The notes beneath the pieces are model-generated. The model had not been told where the DNA came from. It was given only the letters and a program-made list of their open reading frames with translations, and searched no databases. This document shows, piece by piece, positions 1 to 15,400 of a stretch of 15,400 nucleotides of DNA. Made by a program: the position numbers and the translations under genes. The stretch covers positions 1 to 15,400 of IMG/VR virus record IMGVR_UViG_2718217714_000003. One strand, written 5' to 3'. Within the stretch, counting starts at the first letter, position 1. The number at the start of each line of letters is the position of its first letter. This stretch comes from a virus (lineage: Duplodnaviria; Heunggongvirae; Uroviricota; Caudoviricetes).

Positions 1-316
1 TATAATAAACTTACTTTTTTATCATTTTTCCACTTTAACAACATTTTGCTCCACTTTTCCACGATCAAACAACTTGAAATCTGGTTAAAATAACACGCAA
101 CACTATTCTTCTTCCTTGAGTCCGCCCGGAACTCGAAAAACAAACCGAGTTAAAGTCATTTTTCACAAAATCGATTTTGGGTCTCACCAAAATTACGGGG
201 TTGCATACGCATTCGTTTATTTTCGAACGTGTACATACAAATATGCACAAAAATAATCAAAATTATTTTCTGAGATGCATTATGATATGAACACCAATTT
301 CGTATAGAGTCTCACT

Positions 317-907
317 ATGTCTCGAATTTTTGCTTACTGTCGGATATCAACGCTGGATCAGACCATCGAAAATCAACGCCGGGAAATCGAAAGTGCAGGT
401 TTTAAAATCAAACCTCAGCAAATAATCGAAGAACACATTAGCGGCTCAGCAGCAACCAGTGAGCGTCCTGGTTTTAACCGGTTGCTTGCTCGCCTGAAAT
501 GTGGTGATCAATTGATTGTGACAAAACTGGATCGCCTTGGTTGTAATGCAATGGATATCAGGAAAACAGTGGAACAACTGACCGAAACAGGTATCAGAGT
601 GCATTGCTTAGCATTGGGGGGCATTGACCTGACCAGTCCAACAGGAAAAATGATGATGCACGTAATTTCAGCAGTCGCTGAATTTGAACGAGACCTTTTA
701 CTTGAACGCACTCATTCCGGGATAGTAAGAGCCCGCGGCGCAGGGAAACGTTTTGGTCGACCACCTGTGTTAAATGAAGAACAGAAACAGGTGGTATTCG
801 AACGAATTAAGTCAGGTGTAAGTATAAGTGCCATTGCCCGGGAATTCAAAACCTCGCGGCAAACCATTTTAAGAGCCAAAGCAAAACTTCAGACACCTGA
901 CATATAA
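317..907 (+). CDS. pinR: Serine recombinase / DNA invertase, Pin family (196 aa)
   Basis: ATG at 317; N-terminal resolvase catalytic region (YCRISTLDQ, active-site Ser context) and C-terminal HTH; recalled as near-identical to K-12 PinR/PinQ; convergent with tfa as in Rac/Qin. Confidence 0.9.
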
Positions 908-1004
908 AAAATAATCTCGGTGTGAGATGCTTTACGTCTTCCAAGCCCCCTTCCTTGCCGTAAATGGAAAGATACATCTAATTATAGAATTTATATGTTT
1001 TACC

Positions 1005-1580
1005 CTACGGCAGTGCTGGCCATTCAATATCCTGTGCAGTTGACGTATCAACACGGTTCAGCAACACCCGATACTTTTTCCAGGCTTCCAGCAATGAGGT
1101 TTCTTCCTCCGTTGCGATTTCCAGATCTACAGCATCCTGAAGTGGCGCAATATGCTCACTGGCTACCTGCATCAGGCTGTTTTTTGTTTCTTCCGCCTCT
1201 CGGATCCGGAACAGTTTTTCTGCTTCTGCATCTTTCACCCAGGCTGTGCCGTTCCACTTCTGAAACTCCCCTTCCGGCGATAACCAGGTAACATTTTCCG
1301 GTAACGGACCGAGTTCAGAAATAAATAACGCGTCCCCTGACGCTACGTCATAAACCGTTTTACCCCGATGGTCTTCAACGAGATGCCACGATGCCTTATC
1401 ACTGTTGAAAACAGCCACAAAGCCAGCAGGAATATCTGGTGGTGCAATATCGGTACTGTTTGCTGGCAGACCTGTATGAGGCGGAATATATGCGTCACCT
1501 TCACCAATAAATTCATTAGTTCCGGCCAGCAGATTATAAATTTTTATGGTCCGTGGTTGTTCACTCATTCTGAATGCCAT
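1005..1580 (-). CDS. tfa: Tail fibre assembly protein Tfa (191 aa)
   Basis: Protein begins [24 protein letters not shown], matching lambda Tfa/TfaR as recalled; ATG at 1580 overlaps the stf stop (TAATG) indicating translational coupling. Confidence 0.9.
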
Positions 1581-2545
1581 TATGCAAGCCTCACAATATA
1601 GTTAAATGCGATGTTTTTGACGGTGTTTTCCGCGTTACCAGCAGCGTTAACGGTGATGGTGTGTCCATGTGAACCAATCGCAACGGAGTGCGTATGAGCA
1701 CCAATACCGACAGTATGCGCGTGTGCACCTGCAGATGCTGCTGTGCCGGACAGTGAATGGCTATGATTACCATCTGTACTGGTATTCGCTAACCACCCCG
1801 TAGACATACCTACTGAGCCTTGTACACCCCAGGTATTTTGACCTGAGCTTGTATAACCATATTGATAAGTATCTTTAAAAACACTGGGGTTAAATCGACG
1901 GCCATCTCTATGGCTGTGATTACCAGCTGCATTCGTGCTGCCACTTAAACTATGGGTATGCGCACCAGTGTTATTCGTGGATTTAGTGCCGTAATCAAAC
2001 GACGATGTGGTTTTCGTCCCCAAATCCGTACTGGATGCGCTGGCGCTGTGGGTATGCGATTTAATGCCGTCCTGTTCCTGAGACAATACGGCCCGACCAC
2101 TGGCAGGTTTGCCCTTAATCGTCCAGCCACGCATATCAGGGATCACGCCTGACGGATAAGCGGCTGCAAGTTTCGGGTATGCAGATTTGTCAAAAGTCTG
2201 CCCCTGCATCAGGGCATAGCCAGACGGAACGGTATCTGATGGCCACGGGATTGGTGCGCCAGGCGGATAAAACTGCTCTGATGGCGTATAGAGTGAATAA
2301 ACTGTACCGTCCGTTAACCCTTCCGGCTTATTAGCAGAATATGCTGGTGACGTATGAATCGTCACGCTGGCATTACTGGTATAATCCCATTGAATATTTA
2401 CACCAGTCGCATAATTTCCGATTGCAACGTAAATATCGTAAGTATCACCAGATGTATTGACCCAGGCAAAATTTGTAAACCCTGTCGATGTGCGCTGCCA
2501 TAAAGCACCAGTACATGCTGCACGGCGGTGATGGCATACGTGCCG
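1580..2545 (-). pseudogene. stf: Side tail fibre protein Stf, C-terminal fragment only (frame open 2545->1580; first possible start is GTG at 2365)
   Basis: His-rich C-terminus (HSHS/AHTHS repeats, ending [14 protein letters not shown]) typical of lambda/Rac Stf; reading frame opens just after a TGA at 2546-2548 and has no N-terminal anchor domain; out of frame with upstream J. Confidence 0.6.
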
Positions 2546-4287
2546 TCATCGTTCTCACGGATACTCACGCAGCGGAACAGGCGCTGGCGCAGCGTCGGCA
2601 GCTTCAGCCCCCACACGCTGTATCCGGCAACGCCGTCAGGAACACGGCTCACTTTTACCTTCACGCCGTCGGTGACGGACTGGACCTCCACGCTGACCGG
2701 ATTGCCACTTCCGTCAACCAGGCTTATCAGCGTGGTACCGGAGGATGGCAGCGTGATTTCACGGTCGAGCGTCAGCGTCCGGGTCTGGCTGTTCACCGCC
2801 AGCACGCGCCCGCCGATGCTGATACCCGCATAGTCATCATCGCAGATTTCAATGACATCCCCCGGTACATGGCGAAGCCCTTCCGCACCCACGCTGAAGT
2901 CCACGGTCTGCGTTTCCAGCAGTTCCGTTTTAATCAGCCACAGCCCGGCGCGGTGCGCCTGCCCCCGGCTGGTACAGCCAAAGGCATCCATCTTCGTGAC
3001 GTTACGACCGTAACGGGCAATGGCCTGCGTGTCCTCCACAAGCTCTGTCGCCGTCTCCCAGCCGTTATCCGGGTCAATCCAGTTCACCTCAACGGCATTA
3101 TGGCGGTCCTTCAGGGCGCTGAAGCTGTAGCGGAACGGCGCGCCATCATCCGGCATCACCACATTACTGCGGTTATAGGTCCACACCTTATCTGATGGTC
3201 GGTCCTGCACGAACGTCAGCGTCTGCCCGTTCCATACCGGCATACAGCGCATCGCCGAGCAGAAATCACTGAGAACATCCCACGCCTTACGCTGTGTGGT
3301 CAGCCAGGCATTACAGGTGATGCGCGGCTCCGTGCCGCCAAAACCGTCCGGCACCGACTGGTCGCAACACTGGCCGATGACATACAGCGCCCATTTATCC
3401 ACATCCGCCGCACCAAGACGTTTCCCCATGCCGTAGCGCGGGTGGGTCAGCATATCCCACAGACACCAGGCCATGTTGTTGCTGTATGCTGGCTTAAACG
3501 TTCCGTCCCAGATACCGCTGTATTGCCGCGTCTGCGGGTTATAGTTCGACGGCACCTGCAGAATACGCCCGCGAAGATGATAATTACGGCTCACCTGCTG
3601 GCTGCCGAACTGCTCCGAATCCACCTGTACGCCGACCAGTGCCGTGTTCGGGTAGCACTGTTTCACATCGATGATTTCGGTGTATGACGACCAGAGCGTT
3701 TTGTTCTGCAGCTGGTCTGTGGTGCTGTCCGGCGTCATCCTGCGCATCCGTATATTGAACGGGCGCGGCGGCAGGTTACCCACCACCACCGAGGCCAGAT
3801 ACTGCGAGGTGGTTTTGCCCTTAATGGTGATGTCTTTTTCCGTCACCCAGCCACCATTACGCTGGATCTGAACCAGCAGGCGGACTTCCGACGGATTCCG
3901 GTCCCCCTTTGAGGTGGTTTCCACCAGTGCCTGCACGCCGAAGGTAAAGCGCAGACGGTCGATGTTTGCAGACGTAATGGTGCGGGTGATCGGCGTGTCA
4001 TATTTCACTTCCGTACCCAGCACCGTCTCGGAGCCGGAGGATTCAAACCCCTCCGGCGGTGTCTGCTCCTGCTCACCGGCACGGAACACCACCGTGACAC
4101 CGGAGATGTTGGTATTCCCCTCAGTGTCCAGCACCGGCGTACTGTTCAGCAGCACGCTTTTTAATCCATCCACCGGACCTTCAACCGGCCCTTCGCTGAT
4201 GGCATCGATCACACTCAGCAGCTGCGTGGACTTCAGGTTGTCCTTCGCTTCGCGCGGGGTATGCCCCTTACTGCTGCCTTTACCCAT
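2398..4287 (-). pseudogene. J: Tail tip/host-specificity protein J, N-terminal ~578 codons followed by a 51-codon out-of-frame tail (truncated)
   Basis: Starts MGKGSSKGHTPREAKDNLKSTQLL and tracks lambda J (1132 aa) as recalled up to about ...YAITAVQHV, then diverges into unrelated sequence and stops at 2398; C-terminal receptor-binding part absent. Confidence 0.75.
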
Positions 4288-4347
4288 TCCTCACGCTCCA
4301 TAAATGACAAAACCGCCCGCAGGCGGTTTCACATAAAACATTTTGCA

Positions 4348-4644
4348 TCAGCGACCAATCACCACAACCTGACCACCGTCCCCTTCGTCTGCCGTGCTGA
4401 TCTCCTGAGAAACCACGCGAGACCCCACGCGCATTTCCCCGTACAGAACAGGCAGAACATTGCCCTGGGCAACCATGTTATCCAGTGAGGAGAAATAGGT
4501 GTTCTGCTTACCGTTACCCAGCACACCTATTGCTGCCCACTGTGAGGGCGTGACTTTATCGAGCAGCTGTAAAAACCAGTAACCGGCACTACCTGCTGAG
4601 GTGCCATAGGCGACACCCGTTGTTAACTTATCCATGGATTTCAT
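4348..4644 (-). pseudogene. Chimeric ORF: phage-21-type pinholin N-terminus (43 aa, dual-start MKSMDK motif) fused in frame to the C-terminal 55 aa of tail assembly protein I; deletion scar
   Basis: [43 protein letters not shown] resembles S21/EssD pinholin; following [30 protein letters not shown]...VVVIGR matches the lambda I C-terminus; SD GAGGTGGGG precedes the ATG at 4644; the 60-nt gap to the J start matches the lambda I-J spacing. Confidence 0.6.
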
Positions 4645-5233
4645 AACCCCACCTCGCAGACAAAGCGGGTGTAAATTGAGGGAATACAACGTATCGCAAA
4701 AAAGCAGAAACGTAACAGACTCGGAGTCAGTGAATAACTCAGGTATTGAGTTATCAGCTAATATCGAGACTCAAAAAATGGAAAAACCAGCTCGACGGCG
4801 GGTTTAAGCTGTGTGACGAAGTAACCACTCTTAACAGCATAACCAATTTTTTACGTACGTAAACCACTGAATGATATTTATGAGAATGCTACCGAGTGTT
4901 CAAAACACCACCACAAATACATAAGAAAATCTCAACAAATAACCAACAAATAATTTCCAGCGTTATTTTTAGCCAATTTAAATTGAACCTTCAAATCATA
5001 GAGCACTTATAAATAACAACCGTTAATATAAATTGGCTAATAGATTTATTTTTATTCAGCCAAGAGCCATGAATAGGATTCGATAGAAAAAAGTTCAGAT
5101 AAAAATAGAGATCTACTTCACAAATCAAACGAGAAACCAAAACTTACATCTTGAAATAATCATATTGATTAGATGAATATTTATCGCGCAGTGACATCAT
5201 TTTTTAATAATAGTTCAAAAAAAAGGGCTCACG

Positions 5234-6331
5234 ATGAAAAAATTAACAGTGGCAATTTCTGCTGTAGCTGCATCAGTACTGATGGCGATGTCTGCTCAGG
5301 CAGCTGAAATTTATAATAAAGACAGTAACAAGCTGGATCTGTACGGGAAAGTTAATGCTAAGCACTACTTCTCCTCTAATGATGCAGATGATGGTGATAC
5401 TACTTATGCCCGTCTTGGCTTCAAAGGTGAAACCCAAATCAACGATCAACTGACTGGTTTCGGTCAGTGGGAATATGAATTCAAAGGCAACCGCGCTGAA
5501 TCTCAAGGTTCCTCCAAAGATAAAACCCGTCTTGCCTTCGCTGGCCTGAAATTCGGTGACTACGGCTCCATCGATTACGGCCGTAACTACGGTGTAGCAT
5601 ACGACATCGGTGCGTGGACTGACGTTCTGCCAGAATTCGGTGGCGATACCTGGACCCAAACAGATGTGTTCATGACTGGTCGCACCACTGGTGTTGCAAC
5701 CTATCGTAACAACGACTTCTTTGGCCTGGTTGATGGTCTGAACTTTGCTGCTCAGTACCAAGGCAAAAACGATCGTAGCGATTTCGATAACTACACCGAA
5801 GGTAACGGTGATGGCTTCGGTTTCTCTGCTACCTATGAATACGAAGGATTCGGTATCGGTGCAACTTATGCGAAATCTGATCGTACCGACACTCAAGTTA
5901 ATGCAGGGAAAGTTCTTCCTGAAGTATTTGCTTCCGGTAAAAATGCAGAAGTTTGGGCCGCAGGTCTGAAATATGACGCTAACAACATTTACCTGGCCAC
6001 TACCTATTCTGAAACCCAGAATATGACTGTATTTGCTGATCACTTCGTTGCTAATAAAGCTCAAAACTTCGAAGCTGTTGCACAATATCAGTTCGATTTC
6101 GGTCTGCGTCCGTCCGTTGCTTACCTGCAATCTAAAGGTAAGGATCTTGGAGTATGGGGCGATCAGGACTTAGTCAAATATGTTGATGTAGGTGCCACCT
6201 ATTACTTCAACAAAAATATGTCAACTTTCGTTGATTACAAAATCAACCTGCTTGACAAAAATGACTTCACTAAAGCACTCGGTGTAAGCACTGATGACAT
6301 CGTTGCTGTAGGTCTGGTTTACCAGTTCTAA
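5234..6331 (+). CDS. nmpC: Outer-membrane general porin NmpC (OmpC/OmpD family), 365 aa, apparently intact
   Basis: Signal peptide [23 protein letters not shown] then [16 protein letters not shown]; C-terminal ...VAVGLVYQF beta-barrel terminus; SD AAGGG upstream; position after Q on the opposite strand as in DLP12. Confidence 0.9.
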
Positions 6332-6468
6332 TCTGATTACGAAAAAGATATGTTGCGGGAGGCTTTGCCTCCCCAACATATAAGTGGCTCCCTCAAGCCA
6401 CTTCCTTTAGGAGCACAACCTTGCTTCTAACTATATAAACCTTCTGTTATATATTACCCTTTATTTTT

Positions 6469-6495
6469 GGGGGCGTCTCGACGCCCCATTTTTAA
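6469..6495 (+). terminator. Rho-independent terminator downstream of nmpC
   Basis: GGGGGCGT-CTCG-ACGCCCC hairpin followed by ATTTTTAATAATTTTT. Confidence 0.55.
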
Positions 6496-6520
6496 TAATT
6501 TTTAGTAAACAATTGGCATA

Positions 6521-6904
6521 TTAATTAGAGTTATTAACAACGATATCCATCTCTAACCGGATATCTAATGCCATTAACATCCCTTCAATTATACCCTCAG
6601 CCTTCTGTAACCTTTTCCCGATATAACCATCAGAGCAGCAATGCTTACCTGCCAGTGACATGAATGTCATACCGACTACATAATAATCTACTAATAAATC
6701 GTGCAAATCGCTGTTGTTCTTTTTCAGACGGGCCATGCACCCGCAAATGATCATCGCGTCATCGTCACAACATTGCGGGCGAGATTTTACTTTTGAAGGA
6801 ATTAATCCCTTAAAACCGGCAGCAATGGATGACCAAGTTACATCCTCGTGGTTATTAGCCGCCCATGCCCCCCAACGCTCAAGAACCATCTGAATATCAC
6901 GCAT
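6521..6904 (-). CDS. quuD: Late-gene antiterminator Q (phage 82 / DLP12 QuuD type), 127 aa
   Basis: [26 protein letters not shown]... with Cys-rich zinc-binding region ([17 protein letters not shown]); ATG at 6904 chosen over the upstream TTG start in the ORF track. Confidence 0.85.
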
Positions 6905-6927
6905 CAACTTTCCCCACAAAAATCAGG

Positions 6928-7026
6928 CTAGCACGCCAATTGCCAGCAAAAATCAATAAAACGATATAAGCGCAGGCGCGCCCAGCGGCGGCGAAGACGT
7001 TCTGCCATATAAGACTCAAACATCAT
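6928..7026 (-). CDS. ylcG: Small nin-region ORF, YlcG-like (32 aa)
   Basis: [23 protein letters not shown]...; ATG overlaps the rusA stop (ATGA); position between rusA and Q as in DLP12. Confidence 0.45.
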
Positions 7027-7385
7027 TCATCTCCCAGTTCAGTGATGGTCAGTTCCAGCTTCCCACCTTTGGTAACAGGCATCTTCACAACGCGGTAATC
7101 AACGACCTGAACATCATCCAGCCAGAAACCTGCTTTGGTAAGTGCGTCAAAAGCAGCTTTTTGCAGATTATCCAGGTCACGGCGACGGCGATCCGGCATG
7201 TGACACTCAATGCGGATTTTCACAGGAATAGCCAGGCCGATATCCAGCATTGCGTTTTTAATGATTCGGGCGACGTTATCGCGGTATGCCTGCCCCTCTG
7301 CGCTGATGTGCGTGCGCCCGCGATTATGGCGGTAATAGCGATTATTGCTCGGAGGCCAGGGTAATGTGATGTGGTAAGTATTCAC
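7023..7385 (-). CDS. rusA: Holliday-junction resolvase RusA (120 aa, GTG start)
   Basis: ...[25 protein letters not shown]...[27 protein letters not shown]; GTG at 7385 overlaps the ybcO stop (GTGA). Confidence 0.9.
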
Positions 7386-7672
7386 GCCTTGATTACCCCC
7401 TCTTTCAGCCAGATAACCTGCGTTCTCGCCATACCTTCCAGCGCGCATTCTTTTGCGTACTCAGCATCGACAAAATGCGTGCGGCGATCGATTTCGTCGT
7501 GGCAGGCAGAACATGCAATGGTGGCAATCAGGTCTGGCGGTTTAATACCGGTGCCGCACAATCCAGCCAGCCGGATATATGCCAGTACAGACGTTTCAGG
7601 GTTGCCATTACATACGCCAGGGATTCTTACCTGGCATTCCCGACCACGCGCTGCTTTTCTCAAATCAGCCAT
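7382..7672 (-). CDS. ybcO: DLP12 YbcO-like protein (putative nuclease, DUF1364-type), 96 aa
   Basis: [28 protein letters not shown]...[11 protein letters not shown]; ATG at 7672; ninE stop overlaps its start. Confidence 0.8.
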
Positions 7673-7835
7673 GATTCCTCCTTGCTGCCAGTCGCAACCA
7701 TTTTTTATCAACCAGGCTGGCGGTATATCCGAGCAGTGTTGGTATTTCGGATGGCTTCAGCTCAGGTTTACGCTTACGACGATTTGGTACTTTGTAGATG
7801 TGTCCGTTCATGACACGAATAAGCGGTGTAGCCAT
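7665..7835 (-). CDS. ninE: NinE (56 aa)
   Basis: Hand translation of minus strand: [56 protein letters not shown]; ATG overlaps the ybcN stop (TAATG); below the 60-aa ORF-track cutoff. Confidence 0.75.
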   Translation of the reverse strand: MATPLIRVMNGHIYKVPNRRKRKPELKPSEIPTLLGYTASLVDKKWLRLAARRNHG

Positions 7836-8290
7836 TACGCCTCCTGCTTGTCGCGCAGCAGCTGGAACTCGCAGCTCTGCGGAATAGTCAGGTGACAGCC
7901 AATATTCATCGCCCAGGCTTCAACCTTACACAGGAAGACATACATCTCTCCGGTATCAAGATCGGAGGTATGGCGTAACGACTGGATAGTAGTGATTTCG
8001 CCGGTTACGACATCAACCAGGTCCTTGGTTTCATAACCGAGGTATGTGTGTTTGAGAGCATCTTTTACCCATGCTGCGGTAGCGAACGATTTCCCCCTGC
8101 TGATGAGGTATTCACTGATTTCGCTGTACCACATGTGGCTGAGTGCATTCTGGGAAAGACTGCGTCTCTCTCGCCACGGTTTAAGCACCATGCGAAAGCA
8201 TTTGCCTTCCTCCAGATAAGGCTGGATCTGCTGGCCGATAGCGGTGAAGTTGCCGCGATGTAATTTGATGCCGTCTTGTGAGAGGTTCAC
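7835..8290 (-). CDS. ybcN: YbcN (DLP12 base-flipping protein family, NinB position), 151 aa, GTG start
   Basis: [19 protein letters not shown]...[27 protein letters not shown]; GGAGG SD 7 nt upstream of the GTG at 8290. Confidence 0.85.
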
Positions 8291-9021: not shown

Positions 9022-11004
9022 TTAAGCTGGTTTGCTTATACTTTCTTCGCCAGTGCGTAATCCATCAAATGCCTCATCATTGTCTGCTGATTTGTGAGTT
9101 ATGGCTTTCTTTTTATCTGTAGGTATTTCTCTCACATCAGGATTGAGACTTTGAGTCTCATCCTCAGCAGGAACAACCTCTGGTAACTCCGTTTCTTCTT
9201 CGAATGAAACGTTATAACCACGCTCTATAGCTACTAGCTTGACCTTTTCATAAAACTCTGTAGAAATCAAGTCAAAAATCGGCATTGATTGCGTCAATAT
9301 TGTAACTATCTCAGTTTCATCTAATGCTGATAGCACTTCTTCAGCAATGTCCCATTTTTCTAAAAGTATAGCAGCCCCCAGAGCAAGCCAAGCTTCGTTT
9401 TTATCTATCACTTCATTCAGCACTTCCTCAAGCTCTTGTTGCTGTTTTGCTGAAAGCGGCTGCTTTTGTAATTTGTTGCAAAGAACTCTATTTATAAGCA
9501 ATAACTGCTTATGTTTAGACGGTATTGTTCGGGATTCAAGTATGTCCATAAGGCTATTCGCAATTTTGAATTTTTTAGCATCCATTAAGTCCACTAATCC
9601 ATTTACAAGCTTGCCAACTTCACCATCATTCATTTTGTTATAACTTGTTATTCTTTCTATTGACTTTTGTATTTCAGAATCATTATCCAAATGAATATAG
9701 GAACGAAGTATTAATACTTCTGTTTCGAGAGATTTCCCATTAGCCAGATGTTTAGTAGCATATTCTACACATTCATTATACTCTCCAGCACGAAATGCAG
9801 AGTTTGCAATCAAATAATTGGGGGTATTATAAAAATGAATCCCCTCAGGAGAACCAGCAAATTTAGTTTCCTTTAACATTATTTCTAAAGATTTAGTGAT
9901 CGAATTATCATCTAACGATGAGTCTTTCTCTGAAAGAAGTACTTTTATTTTTTTTACAAACTGGCTTACTGTATTCACTCTCCTGACATGATCAGCAAGA
10001 TTATTCATATCTCTTTTAATAATCTCATGCTGGACATCTGCGTCATCTTCTTCAGCTATAGAGAAATATCTATCTAGTTTATTAGATAATGCAGAGTATG
10101 GCTCTACTACCTCTTGCTGCAAATTACAGCCTAATGCGTAATGTAATTCAGCCATGAACTCATCAAATCCATTAATTTTAATAAGATGAAAATGAGGAAA
10201 GCGGGCCAGATTTTTAAGTTGCTCAGAAAGTTTTTCAGTGTCTGAGTCACGGATACACCAATAAATCCCATGAGGAAAACAACTACCGGAATGCAATAAC
10301 GTATTGAGAGTATCCATAATTGAACGGTCGTGTCCCGAGTACCCAATAACGATCATGCCAAATTCAGTTGCAAACTGTCTAAATTTGGCCCTCATGTTAT
10401 CTTCAAGTGACTCAAGCTCCCTTATAGTATTCTTGATATTGTCAAATAAAAAATCACCATGTAATTTTATTATTTTTGGCCGAGCTGTGGTTAAACGTAT
10501 GCTGTTGATACTTGAATCGTGGGCACACACTATTGGTCTCAGATTATTAGAAAAGGTAAAGCAAGCTTCATTGACTAAATCATCGAAGTTAGTCGTAAAA
10601 ATTGTATTAAAATGGCCTTTATCCAATAGATTTGTGAGATAAACGTATCCCCAAGATGGTTTAGCTGCGGTAATACAACTTTCAATAAATTCTCTTCTTT
10701 GAGTTGGTTGATCATATAATGCTTCAAAAAGCTCTGAATACTCATTATCTTTATCGTACCAAACTTGTTTTTTGAGAGCATCTTCTCCATACATTAGAGT
10801 GTAAGCATCTCTCCAGCGCCTTATCATCCCACCAGCACTATCAACACCACTTGAGATACTAGCACCTGCACCAAGAAAAAGAGTAAAATTTGGATGATGT
10901 TGTTTGGTTGAAGTCAGGATGTTAATTAGGTGCTGCTGTGGTCTAATTTTCATATATATACCGAGACATTCCATGAAAGTTATCATCGGTTCCATATGAT
11001 ACAC
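9022..11004 (-). CDS. SIR2-family (sirtuin-like NAD+-binding) protein, 660 aa: N-terminal SIR2 domain, C-terminal alpha-helical domain, acidic tail; candidate anti-phage NADase effector
   Basis: Motifs FLGAGASISSG (Rossmann GAGxS loop), IFTTNFDDL (sirtuin TQNID-like Asn), IIKLHGDF (catalytic His), VIGYSGHD (GTS-like); noticeably lower GC than flanking O/P/nin genes; the ORF-track start is GTG at 11004, in-frame ATGs lie 3, 6 and 10 codons downstream. Confidence 0.85.
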   Translation of the reverse strand: MYHMEPMITFMECLGIYMKIRPQQHLINILTSTKQHHPNFTLFLGAGASISSGVDSAGGMIRRWRDAYTLMYGEDALKKQVWYDKDNEYSELFEALYDQPTQRREFIESCITAAKPSWGYVYLTNLLDKGHFNTIFTTNFDDLVNEACFTFSNNLRPIVCAHDSSINSIRLTTARPKIIKLHGDFLFDNIKNTIRELESLEDNMRAKFRQFATEFGMIVIGYSGHDRSIMDTLNTLLHSGSCFPHGIYWCIRDSDTEKLSEQLKNLARFPHFHLIKINGFDEFMAELHYALGCNLQQEVVEPYSALSNKLDRYFSIAEEDDADVQHEIIKRDMNNLADHVRRVNTVSQFVKKIKVLLSEKDSSLDDNSITKSLEIMLKETKFAGSPEGIHFYNTPNYLIANSAFRAGEYNECVEYATKHLANGKSLETEVLILRSYIHLDNDSEIQKSIERITSYNKMNDGEVGKLVNGLVDLMDAKKFKIANSLMDILESRTIPSKHKQLLLINRVLCNKLQKQPLSAKQQQELEEVLNEVIDKNEAWLALGAAILLEKWDIAEEVLSALDETEIVTILTQSMPIFDLISTEFYEKVKLVAIERGYNVSFEEETELPEVVPAEDETQSLNPDVREIPTDKKKAITHKSADNDEAFDGLRTGEESISKPA

Positions 11005-12826: not shown

Positions 12827-13366
12827 TCATATCGCCCCCAGCATGGTAGTAACCATCGCCATCAATGGACCAGCCAGATCTGGGTCCACACGAAACATCG
12901 ACACAATACCTTCACTAATTTCCTTCAGTTTCTGGTGGCGTGGTGCGTTGAGAATGACAGCCTGTTTTGCCTCACTGAGTTCCTTTTCCATTTCAGCCAA
13001 CCTAGCCATGAAGCTATCCTGCTCAACCAGGTAACCGCGATATTCCAGCGGTAGTACCGCCAGAATTGCCGGGGTCAGTTCACGCACGTTATTTCGGTAT
13101 TTTTCAGAATCGAATTTGTTATCGAGGAAGCGGAACAGCTTCTGGCGTGCACGGCTGACATCATCAGGGAAATCGATGGTGCCGCCGCCCTGCTCCCGAT
13201 ACTCATTCACAATGAGTGTGGCAACGACATCCTGATTATCTACAGCCGACCAGGCGCGGACGGCATCACGGATTTTTTCGTGGCCTGGCACCTGTTTTGT
13301 TTGAGAACGATTTATCACCGCAGTCGGGCTAAATCCGCTAGTCTGTTGGTATGTAAGTGGTTGCAT
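12827..13366 (-). CDS. YdaT-like protein in the cII position (179 aa)
   Basis: Segments VNEYREQGGGTIDFP and LTPAILAVLPLEYRGYL resemble Rac YdaT as recalled; AAGGAG SD 8 nt upstream of the ATG at 13366; sits between the cro-like gene and O. Confidence 0.7.
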   Translation of the reverse strand: MQPLTYQQTSGFSPTAVINRSQTKQVPGHEKIRDAVRAWSAVDNQDVVATLIVNEYREQGGGTIDFPDDVSRARQKLFRFLDNKFDSEKYRNNVRELTPAILAVLPLEYRGYLVEQDSFMARLAEMEKELSEAKQAVILNAPRHQKLKEISEGIVSMFRVDPDLAGPLMAMVTTMLGAI

Positions 13367-13435
13367 AATTGACTCCTTTAGTTTGAATTGACTGTTAAGT
13401 TGATTGCTTATTGTTAAAGAGCGTGAAATGGAAAT

Positions 13436-13666
13436 TTAAGCTGCGTTCTTTTCGGTGTGTGGAAACAACTTCGGAAGATCCGGGCGAATCTGGTATGCCT
13501 TCACTACTCCACCAGTAGCCGTAACAATGCTGCCGACATGTTCAGGGGATACCTTTGCTTTGTTGTGAAGCCACTTATAGACGGCCTGCTGTGAAACTTC
13601 GCAAGCAGCGCCCAGTTTCTTTTGTGAACCAACGATATTGATCGCTGTTTTGATAGCTGGGTTCAT
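13436..13666 (-). CDS. Cro-like HTH regulator (YdaS-like), 76 aa
   Basis: HTH-like segment GSQKKLGAACEVSQQAVYKWL; GGAGG SD 5 nt upstream of the ATG at 13666; divergent from the repressor gene across an operator-bearing intergenic region. Confidence 0.75.
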   Translation of the reverse strand: MNPAIKTAINIVGSQKKLGAACEVSQQAVYKWLHNKAKVSPEHVGSIVTATGGVVKAYQIRPDLPKLFPHTEKNAA

Positions 13667-13693
13667 AACAACCTCCGTGGTTAATTTGAATCA

Positions 13694-13729
13694 AGATTAA
13701 AACTATGGTTGTTTTTAGTCAACAACCAT
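13694..13729 (-). promoter_or_regulatory. Candidate OR/PR: 25-bp perfect inverted repeat ATGGTTGTT-N7-AACAACCAT overlapping a minus-strand -35 TTGACT with a TAATCT -10
   Basis: Palindrome read at 13705-13729; on the minus strand TTGACT (13722-13717) - 17 bp - TAATCT (13699-13694), about 25 nt upstream of the cro-like SD. Confidence 0.5.
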
Positions 13730-13770
13730 TTTCGTTTGATGGAATAAAACCTTGGTTGTACATTTGGACT

Positions 13771-14460
13771 ATGAAAACAACACTCTCAGAAAGACTTAAA
13801 GAAGCCAGATTAGCGCGAGGCCTTACACAAAAGGCGCTTGGGGATTTGGTCGGGGTTAGCCAGGCTGCTATTCAGAAAATCGAAACAGGGAAAGCTAATC
13901 AAACAACTAAAATCGTGGAGATCGCGAACGCTTTGGGTGTGCGCGCAGAATGGTTATCTTCTGGCGTTGGAAATATGTCAGACAGTACAGTGCAACCAAT
14001 ACAATCAACTGTCAGCCATTCCAAATACTTCAAGATTGACGTTCTTGATATAGAAGTCAGTGCTGGGCCGGGAGTCATCAACCGTGAGTTTGTAGAAGTT
14101 CTACGCTCGGTTGAGTACTCGTTTGACGATGCTCGTCACATGTTCGATGGTAGGAAGGCGGAAAATATCCGCATCATTAACGTGCGTGGTGACAGCATGT
14201 CAGGAACGATCGAACCAGGTGATCTGCTGTTCGTTGATATCACAGTTAAATCTTTCGACGGTGATGGTATCTATGCGTTTCTGTACGACGACACAGCCCA
14301 TGTAAAGCGCCTGCAAATGATGAAGGATAAGCTGCTGGTCATCTCTGATAACAAAAGCTACTCACCGTGGGACCCGATCGAGAAAGACGAGATGAACCGG
14401 GTGTTCATCTTCGGTAAGGTTATTGGGAGCATGCCGCAGACATATAGGAAGCATGGGTAG
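13771..14460 (+). CDS. CI-type prophage repressor: N-terminal HTH-XRE domain plus C-terminal S24 (LexA-like) autopeptidase domain, 229 aa
   Basis: HTH LTQKALGDLVGVSQAAIQKIETGK; Ala-Gly cleavage-site context (EVSAGPG); catalytic Ser in VRGDSMSG and Lys in AHVKRL; start taken at MKTTLSERL (ATG 13771) rather than the upstream ATG at 13705 inside the operator palindrome. Confidence 0.85.
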   Translation: MKTTLSERLKEARLARGLTQKALGDLVGVSQAAIQKIETGKANQTTKIVEIANALGVRAEWLSSGVGNMSDSTVQPIQSTVSHSKYFKIDVLDIEVSAGPGVINREFVEVLRSVEYSFDDARHMFDGRKAENIRIINVRGDSMSGTIEPGDLLFVDITVKSFDGDGIYAFLYDDTAHVKRLQMMKDKLLVISDNKSYSPWDPIEKDEMNRVFIFGKVIGSMPQTYRKHG

Positions 14461-15210: not shown

Positions 15211-15400
15211 TTTGCTCGTGGAAGTTTTTCTCGACGGACGCGGTACTCCGTTACGAAGCGAGGCTGGGTATTTCCCGGCCTTTCTGTTATCCGAAAGATG
15301 CGCATCGACAGCAAGACATCATGGCTATCAGCTTGTCGTCGTGCAGGAATTGAAGATTTCCGTTTCCATGACCTCAGACACACCTGGGCAAGCTGGCTGA
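15211..15400 (+). pseudogene. int: Tyrosine integrase, C-terminal catalytic fragment (box II region), 5'-truncated, running off the window end
   Basis: Frame opening after the TGA at 15208-15210 translates ...[45 protein letters not shown], resembling the DLP12 IntD C-terminal region as recalled; the same frame has stops at 15154 and 15088 and no upstream frame shows integrase-like sequence. Confidence 0.6.

Follow-up and report, generated by a model that had tools for sequence, protein, structure and literature searches.

The open reading frame at 4348-4644 of the window (the whole 15,400-nt stretch of phage DNA analysed here) is best explained as a pseudogene scar, left when one illegitimate, recombinase-independent deletion of 17,411 bp joined the pinholin gene essD to the tail gene I in a DLP12-type lambdoid prophage at argU, a reading to which we assign a probability of about 0.88. 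An apt annotation for it is essD'-'I fusion pseudogene. The biology is that of ordinary prophage decay, already seen as pseudogene calls in public annotation, and the scar is a new deletion allele of a well-known type of element; its sole surprising element, and a mildly surprising one, is an inverted repeat around the breakpoint. The coordinates of the features are collected in Table 1.

Table 1. Features of the window, with the collinear blocks found in the locus of the undeleted prophage of strain PEC209 (L005).
Feature	Position in the window	Strand	Details
Collinear block	1-2513		L005 18012-20524; BLAST
Collinear block	2508-4516		L005 24920-26928; BLAST
Collinear block	4515-8178		L005 44338-48001; BLAST
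pin-type serine invertase gene	317-907	plus	intact
tfa, tail fibre assembly gene	1005-1580	minus	intact
stf C-terminal remnant (side tail fibre)	1580-2365	minus	
Truncated J (J')	2398-4287	minus	about 591 J codons plus about 37 out-of-frame stf codons
Deletion B breakpoint	2511-2513		exact microhomology GTA; 4,401 bp relative to PEC209
I-J intergenic spacer	4288-4347	minus	60 nt, intact; identical to lambda 15445-15504
essD'-'I fusion ORF	4348-4644	minus	98 aa plus stop
Mechanical ORF	4348-4689	minus	TTG start at 4689
I-derived part of the fusion	4348-4515	minus	55 codons plus stop, lambda gpI residues 169-223
essD-derived part of the fusion	4516-4644	minus	codons 1-43: dual-start MKSM motif, SAR-type TMD1, loop, first 8 residues of TMD2
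Deletion A breakpoint	4515-4516		exact microhomology TA, inside an imperfect 7-mer (5/7)
Inverted repeat (24 nt), I-side arm	4483-4506		20/24 complementary
Inverted repeat (24 nt), essD-side arm	4519-4542		20/24 complementary
GAGG Shine-Dalgarno core	4652-4655	minus	8-11 nt upstream of ATG 4644; read from sequence
AT-rich region, porin gene to essD	4645-5233	minus	94.4% identical to the nmpC-essD spacer of K-12 DLP12
nmpC-type porin gene	5234-6331	plus	Porin_1, E 1e-156; between quuD and essD
SIR2-domain protein gene	9022-11004	minus	660 aa; between P and the nin region; intact
Two further deletion junctions, early left arm	15243-15296		15243/15244 and 15295/15296, flanking a 53-nt island

The fusion is encoded on the minus strand, which the first-pass annotation had not stated, and the plausible start is the ATG at 4644 and not the TTG of the mechanical reading frame, so that the product has 98 aa. 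That annotation had proposed the N-terminus of a phage 21-type pinholin, with its MKSMDK dual start and first transmembrane segment, followed by the last 55 residues of tail assembly protein I, and both halves were borne out. Residues 1-43 (MKSMDK...AAIGVLG) match the Pfam family PF04971 "Bacteriophage P21 holin S" at profile positions 1-39 of 64 (E 1.6e-18), and are identical to EssD of K-12 DLP12 and of PEC209. Residues 44-98 are identical at 55 of 55 positions to residues 169-223 of lambda gpI (PDB 8iyk and other tail-tip structures, E 2.8e-30), with a single synonymous difference from lambda at the nucleotide level. The switch, placed beforehand at about nt 4515, turned out to be exact, since nucleotide identity to essD stops at 4515 and identity to I starts at 4516. 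The good Shine-Dalgarno sequence and the normal 60-nt spacer to J that had been noticed are also there, the ATG of J (4287) coming directly after the spacer.

Regarding what was kept from each parent gene, the fusion has the dual-start MKSM motif and the SAR-type TMD1 of the phage 21-type pinholin, whereas the complete TMD2 and the basic cytoplasmic C-terminus are absent, W36-G43 being all that remains of TMD2 and positions 40-64 of the Pfam profile being unmatched. The SAR endolysin and spannin genes are absent after essD', with rrrD, rzpD and rzoD inside the 17,411-bp deletion. From gpI, the C-terminal beta-strands that run through the gpJ hub (residues about 176-223) are kept, with J 60 nt downstream; residues 1-168 are missing, so that the N-terminal domain and the hydrophobic helices H1/H2 are gone and the plug domain (159-175) is incomplete. 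Gene K, upstream of I, is also deleted.

The window belongs to a DLP12-type lambdoid prophage inserted at the tRNA-Arg gene argU, between fimZ and the ompT/envY region, as judged from the context in strains EC361 and EH01-18-02 compared with K-12. The hallmark of DLP12 is present, namely quuD, then an nmpC-type porin gene in the opposite orientation, and then essD'. The nearest complete genome is that of E. coli EC361 (NZ_AP027417), with 5 SNPs over the 15,400 nt (positions 1634, 1757, 1787, 4567 and 8589), and the change at 4567 leaves the fusion protein unaltered; these differences make the source of the window a close relative of EC361, distinct from all complete assemblies searched. In a search with Rfam no RNA family was found in or near the fusion, the only match being IS009 (RF02111) inside tfa, which is full-length and scores 226.7 bits (1039-1237, minus strand). 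The best PADLOC matches of the SIR2 protein were to Argonaute-associated SIR2 domains (E 5e-63) and to the candidate system PDC-S65 (E 1e-33), and no partner gene was evident; it is probably a stand-alone prophage defence gene.

A near-identical, apparently complete prophage that lacks the deletion was found at the same argU site, between the same neighbouring genes, in PEC209 (NZ_CM168015, 3,328,327-3,369,928). As shown in Table 1, a BLAST search of the window against this locus gave three collinear blocks, which are 99.90-99.96% identical, with 5 mismatches in a total of 8,186 nt, and many protein accessions are common to the PEC209 prophage and the lineage of the window. The order of genes in PEC209 is int, exo, bet, gam, repressor, O, P, SIR2, nin, quuD, porin, essD, rrrD, rzpD, iss and ylcI, and after ylcI nohD, terminase, head genes, tail genes Z to K, I, J, lom, stf, tfa and pinR. 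Relative to this order, the deletion that made the fusion (deletion A) comprises exactly 17,411 bp between the breakpoints in essD and I, and joined nt 130 of essD to codon about 136 of I. Lost with it were the 3' end of essD, 22 complete annotated genes, cos and the first ~135 codons of I; its gene content runs through rrrD, rzpD, iss/bor, ylcI, nohD, the large terminase gene, the head genes and tail genes Z to K, and the lambda-type cos (GGGCGGCGACCT) lies within it, at L005 42207. PEC209 is, on sequence, a close relative and not the ancestor, as it diverges by about 0.5% in the early region and in the chromosomal flank.

The earlier claim that a single deletion had removed everything from inside the holin gene to inside I stood as regards its content, because endolysin, Rz, cos, terminase, head and most tail genes are gone, and no intact lysis or morphogenesis gene was found in the interval; that it was a single event is the parsimonious reading. 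The loss of the late block is likewise confirmed by PEC209, with the correction that it is not the sole deletion, as three further ones were found in the prophage. An inspection of junction A for microhomology, which the first-pass annotation had suggested, showed no filler and TA as the only exact microhomology, embedded in the 7-mer that matches at five positions. The junction thus has the marks of a microhomology-mediated deletion: a collinear parent, no filler, few shared base pairs and neither an IS nor a palindromic core site.

The breakpoint lies within the 12-nt gap between the arms of an inverted repeat (4483-4506 and 4519-4542), the longest one detected by a repeat finder in positions 1-5300. 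Both arms are already present in the parent at L005 26895 and 44342, separated by 17.4 kb, and the deleted segment is flanked by the I arm at a distance of 9 nt and by the essD arm at 3 nt. Within the 48 kb of the parental locus, no other sequence pairs as well with the essD arm in inverted orientation as the I arm does, with 20 of 24 positions against 17 of 24 for the next best, and the complementarity of the arms would place both endpoints of deletion A next to each other. The score of the junction was reached by 2 of 38,657 random junctions drawn from the same prophage, in a test that was post hoc, and for the junction folded as DNA the energy was -14.3 kcal/mol (z = -2.2). No such repeat was found at the other four junctions scored (deletion B, the two of the left arm and one in a BCE049-type remnant described below), with scores that were not above the median of the null.

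Pairing of the essD arm with the I arm would fold the lysis-to-tail block into a loop that could be bypassed or cut out at the top of the stem, and the ends would then be joined, we infer, by end joining or template switching on the 2 bp of homology. Illegitimate recombination on lambda prophages in E. coli resembles MMEJ and starts with resection of a double-strand break (PMC11372144). Pairing across a loop of 17 kb would require an unusually long single-stranded intermediate, which counts against a role of the repeat and for which Red exonuclease processing, rolling-circle replication after abortive induction or conjugative transfer could be proposed as sources. Because the test was post hoc, the classical models delete the stem and the loop measures 17 kb, we regard it as possible but rather doubtful that this pre-existing repeat set the endpoints of deletion A. 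If it did, a loop-out deletion that retains its stem would be a route of prophage inactivation, and in any case the repeat gives a modest, testable clue to how illegitimate recombination selects endpoints that lie far apart.

The bracketing of both endpoints by matched arms also bears on whether the junction could result from several successive, nested deletions. Deletions are frequent in this prophage, with at least four relative to PEC209, which lends such a history some plausibility; however, a survey of 5,426 complete genomes yielded no intermediate, and the position of the arms is simplest to understand if both endpoints were set in one event, so that we consider nested deletions unlikely.

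In addition to deletion A, the joining of J codon about 592 to stf codon about 676 by deletion B took out the 3' half of J (receptor-binding), lom and the 5' two-thirds of stf. This join is out of frame, and for this reason the 629-aa ORF of J' ends in junk. In the early left arm, the 53-nt island between the two junctions is a remnant of the exo/methyltransferase region, and of int no more than the final 303 bp are left; here the deletions measure about 1,900 and about 2,600 bp relative to PEC209, show microhomologies of 0 and 2 nt, and removed gam-bet-exo and a stretch from the methyltransferase gene into int. We infer that deletion A and these three others lock the prophage in the chromosome, with no host lysis, DNA packaging, virion building or excision. 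The immunity region, O/P, the SIR2 defence gene, the nin region, quuD, the porin gene, tfa and pin are retained. Decay went on in the carriers, since about 1.1 kb of O/P was lost in EH01-18-02 (13180-13788 of its locus, L001) and in the SRY strains. In PEC301, an IS2 was gained.

The region of junction A was fully matched in 6 of the 5,426 complete E. coli genomes (EC361, PEC301, EH01-18-02, SRY149, SRY157 and SRY206), with pig and human as hosts and Japan, Laos and South Korea as origins (three records). Junction B and the rest of the window are carried by the same six genomes, which supports one origin of the junctions, and as the six carriers share all deletions there is no sign that junction A recurred independently. 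In a wider collection, the exact 98-aa protein was present on 76 contigs. Its variants in the 90% cluster amount to five singleton non-synonymous substitutions, too few for a selection test.

As for a possible activity of the product, in the pinholin S21 the loop LDQVSPSQ joins TMD1 to TMD2, and TMD2 has been reported as necessary and sufficient for pore formation, whereas the N-terminus times activation (bioRxiv 10.1101/2021.04.20.440580). Since this pore-forming segment is cut to 8 residues in the fusion and its hydrophobic peak is lost (a Kyte-Doolittle maximum of 2.1 in EssD against at most 0.6 in the fusion), pinholin activity is excluded. Lacking both the pore-forming TMD2 and the charged C-terminus, the peptide is most likely inert, whether or not it is translated. 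In gpI, residues 159-175 form the plug and are followed by beta-strands that thread the hub domains of gpJ (PMC11101478); the part kept here has no evident role, as no virion is assembled. No consensus site was found in a sigma-70 promoter scan of 4200-5300, and late transcription would be driven from upstream, by pR' and QuuD. The scar may still be transcribed, and essD is transcribed in K-12 (PMC7918800).

That transcription could equally be invoked for a domesticated gene, in which TMD1 (SAR) would act as an anti-pinholin in trans on the S21-type holins of other prophages, or, in a second version, in which a membrane-tethered C-terminus of gpI would bind the hub of J' or poison the tail-tip assembly of superinfecting lambdoid phages. 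Such proposals draw on the in-frame join with its Shine-Dalgarno sequence and dual start, on the timing and restraint of S21 pore formation by TMD1 (bioRxiv 10.1101/2021.04.20.440580), and on the gpI segment that threads the gpJ hub domains (PMC11101478), domains that J' retains. Nevertheless, an in-frame join arises by chance in one case out of three and is therefore not evidence of function, and the allele is young and clonal, with near-identical copies in the six genomes, so that nothing on selection can be concluded from its conservation. The few protein variants, singleton and non-synonymous, the lack of any PADLOC match for the fusion and the out-of-frame junk at the end of J' add to this, and domestication in either version appears quite improbable.

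The junction could also have been produced by recombination between two prophages, a DLP12 remnant and a separate lambda-like one, or by mosaic acquisition. Many lambdoid phages match the I-J segment at about 98-99% identity, and an E. coli genome contains several such prophages (at a median of 2 places per genome). However, PEC209 has essD and I-J-lom-stf-tfa-pin collinear within one argU prophage, and both flanks are identical to it, with at least 99.9% identity on either side of the junction, which makes an origin from two prophages highly improbable.

Also highly improbable is the action of a site-specific or transpositional enzyme, either Pin, whose gene is intact in the prophage, on pseudo-sites with a TA core, or an IS3- or IS630-type element, for which the shared core of 2 bp, the dyad symmetry around the junction and a resemblance of 9-10 nt to the left end of IS3 would speak. 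Pseudo-sites for Pin or another serine recombinase were rejected, because the parental sites are not palindromic around TA (half-site matches of 5/12 and 3/12) and the centre of the dyad is 3 nt off TA. For an IS-mediated deletion, no IS was found at the junction and the resemblance to the IS3 left end was within chance, and against an excision at TA of the IS630/mariner type, the two inner ends of the segment that was lost do not form an inverted repeat.

With the ORF read as the scar of an illegitimate deletion, its current labels can be corrected. In RefSeq, PGAP describes 4348-4605 (20296-20553 of the EH01-18-02 locus) as "phage holin, incomplete" with a missing N-terminus, though the N-terminus is the holin part, and in GenBank the 98-aa product (BDY56362.1) is labelled "tail assembly protein". 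The window and PEC209 form a natural before-and-after pair, with four deletions mapped to the base (17,411, 4,401, about 1,900 and about 2,600 bp, with microhomologies of 0-3 bp), and document how a lambdoid prophage is disarmed with its cargo kept, that is, the porin gene, the SIR2 defence gene and the immunity region. The carriers also lack, by natural knock-out, the DLP12 lysis module, for which a link to the production of outer-membrane vesicles and to maintenance of the cell wall has been described in K-12 (PMC7918800).

Compared with known systems, the prophage is like DLP12 of K-12 (argU; quuD-nmpC-essD-rrrD-rzpD ... nohD-aaaD'-tfaD) in its site, in the order of quuD, porin gene and essD and in its ompT/envY flank, and both are defective by internal deletion of morphogenesis genes. 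In K-12, in contrast, the block from inside a terminase gene to tfa was lost, and the whole lysis cassette, bor and nohD are kept, the lysis module being integrally conserved and transcribed (PMC7918800), whereas in the window the lysis cassette was lost and I'-J'-stf'-tfa-pin is retained. The argU prophage of PEC209 is 99.9% identical across the retained late blocks and has the same porin, quuD, SIR2, tfa and pin proteins, but carries the 17,411-bp and 4,401-bp segments as well as int, exo, bet and gam. With the phage 21 pinholin S21 (S2171/S2168) the fusion has in common the dual-start MKSMDK and the SAR-type TMD1, and it differs in that TMD2 stops after 8 residues, the basic tail at the C-terminus is missing, a SAR endolysin gene does not follow and pinholes cannot be formed.

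In mechanism, junction A resembles the short-homology illegitimate recombination of E. coli known from the lambda Spi- assay, which likewise shows microhomology of 2-3 bp, no filler and a potential for structure joining the endpoints. Glickman and Ripley reportedly modelled deletion endpoints in E. coli that are juxtaposed by palindromes. The classical hairpin model has both stem and loop removed, over distances of tens to hundreds of nt, whereas at junction A the arms of the stem are retained and the "loop" is 17.4 kb.

The closest parallel in outcome is a BCE049-type remnant located near sitABCD/sitD (L002, NZ_CP042250, 6473-10063), in which an independent deletion of about 17.4 kb removed nearly the same lysis-to-tail block. 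At its junction (about 6670) the first 66 codons of rrrD are joined in frame to codon 3 of J, also on a TA microhomology, but unlike in the window essD is intact upstream and J is full length, forming an ORF of 1,196 aa annotated as gpJ. This junction is present in 79 of the 5,426 complete genomes, at another chromosomal locus, and has no inverted repeat at the join. The two deletions being independent, the block from lysis to tail genes has been lost at least twice in DLP12-like late regions.
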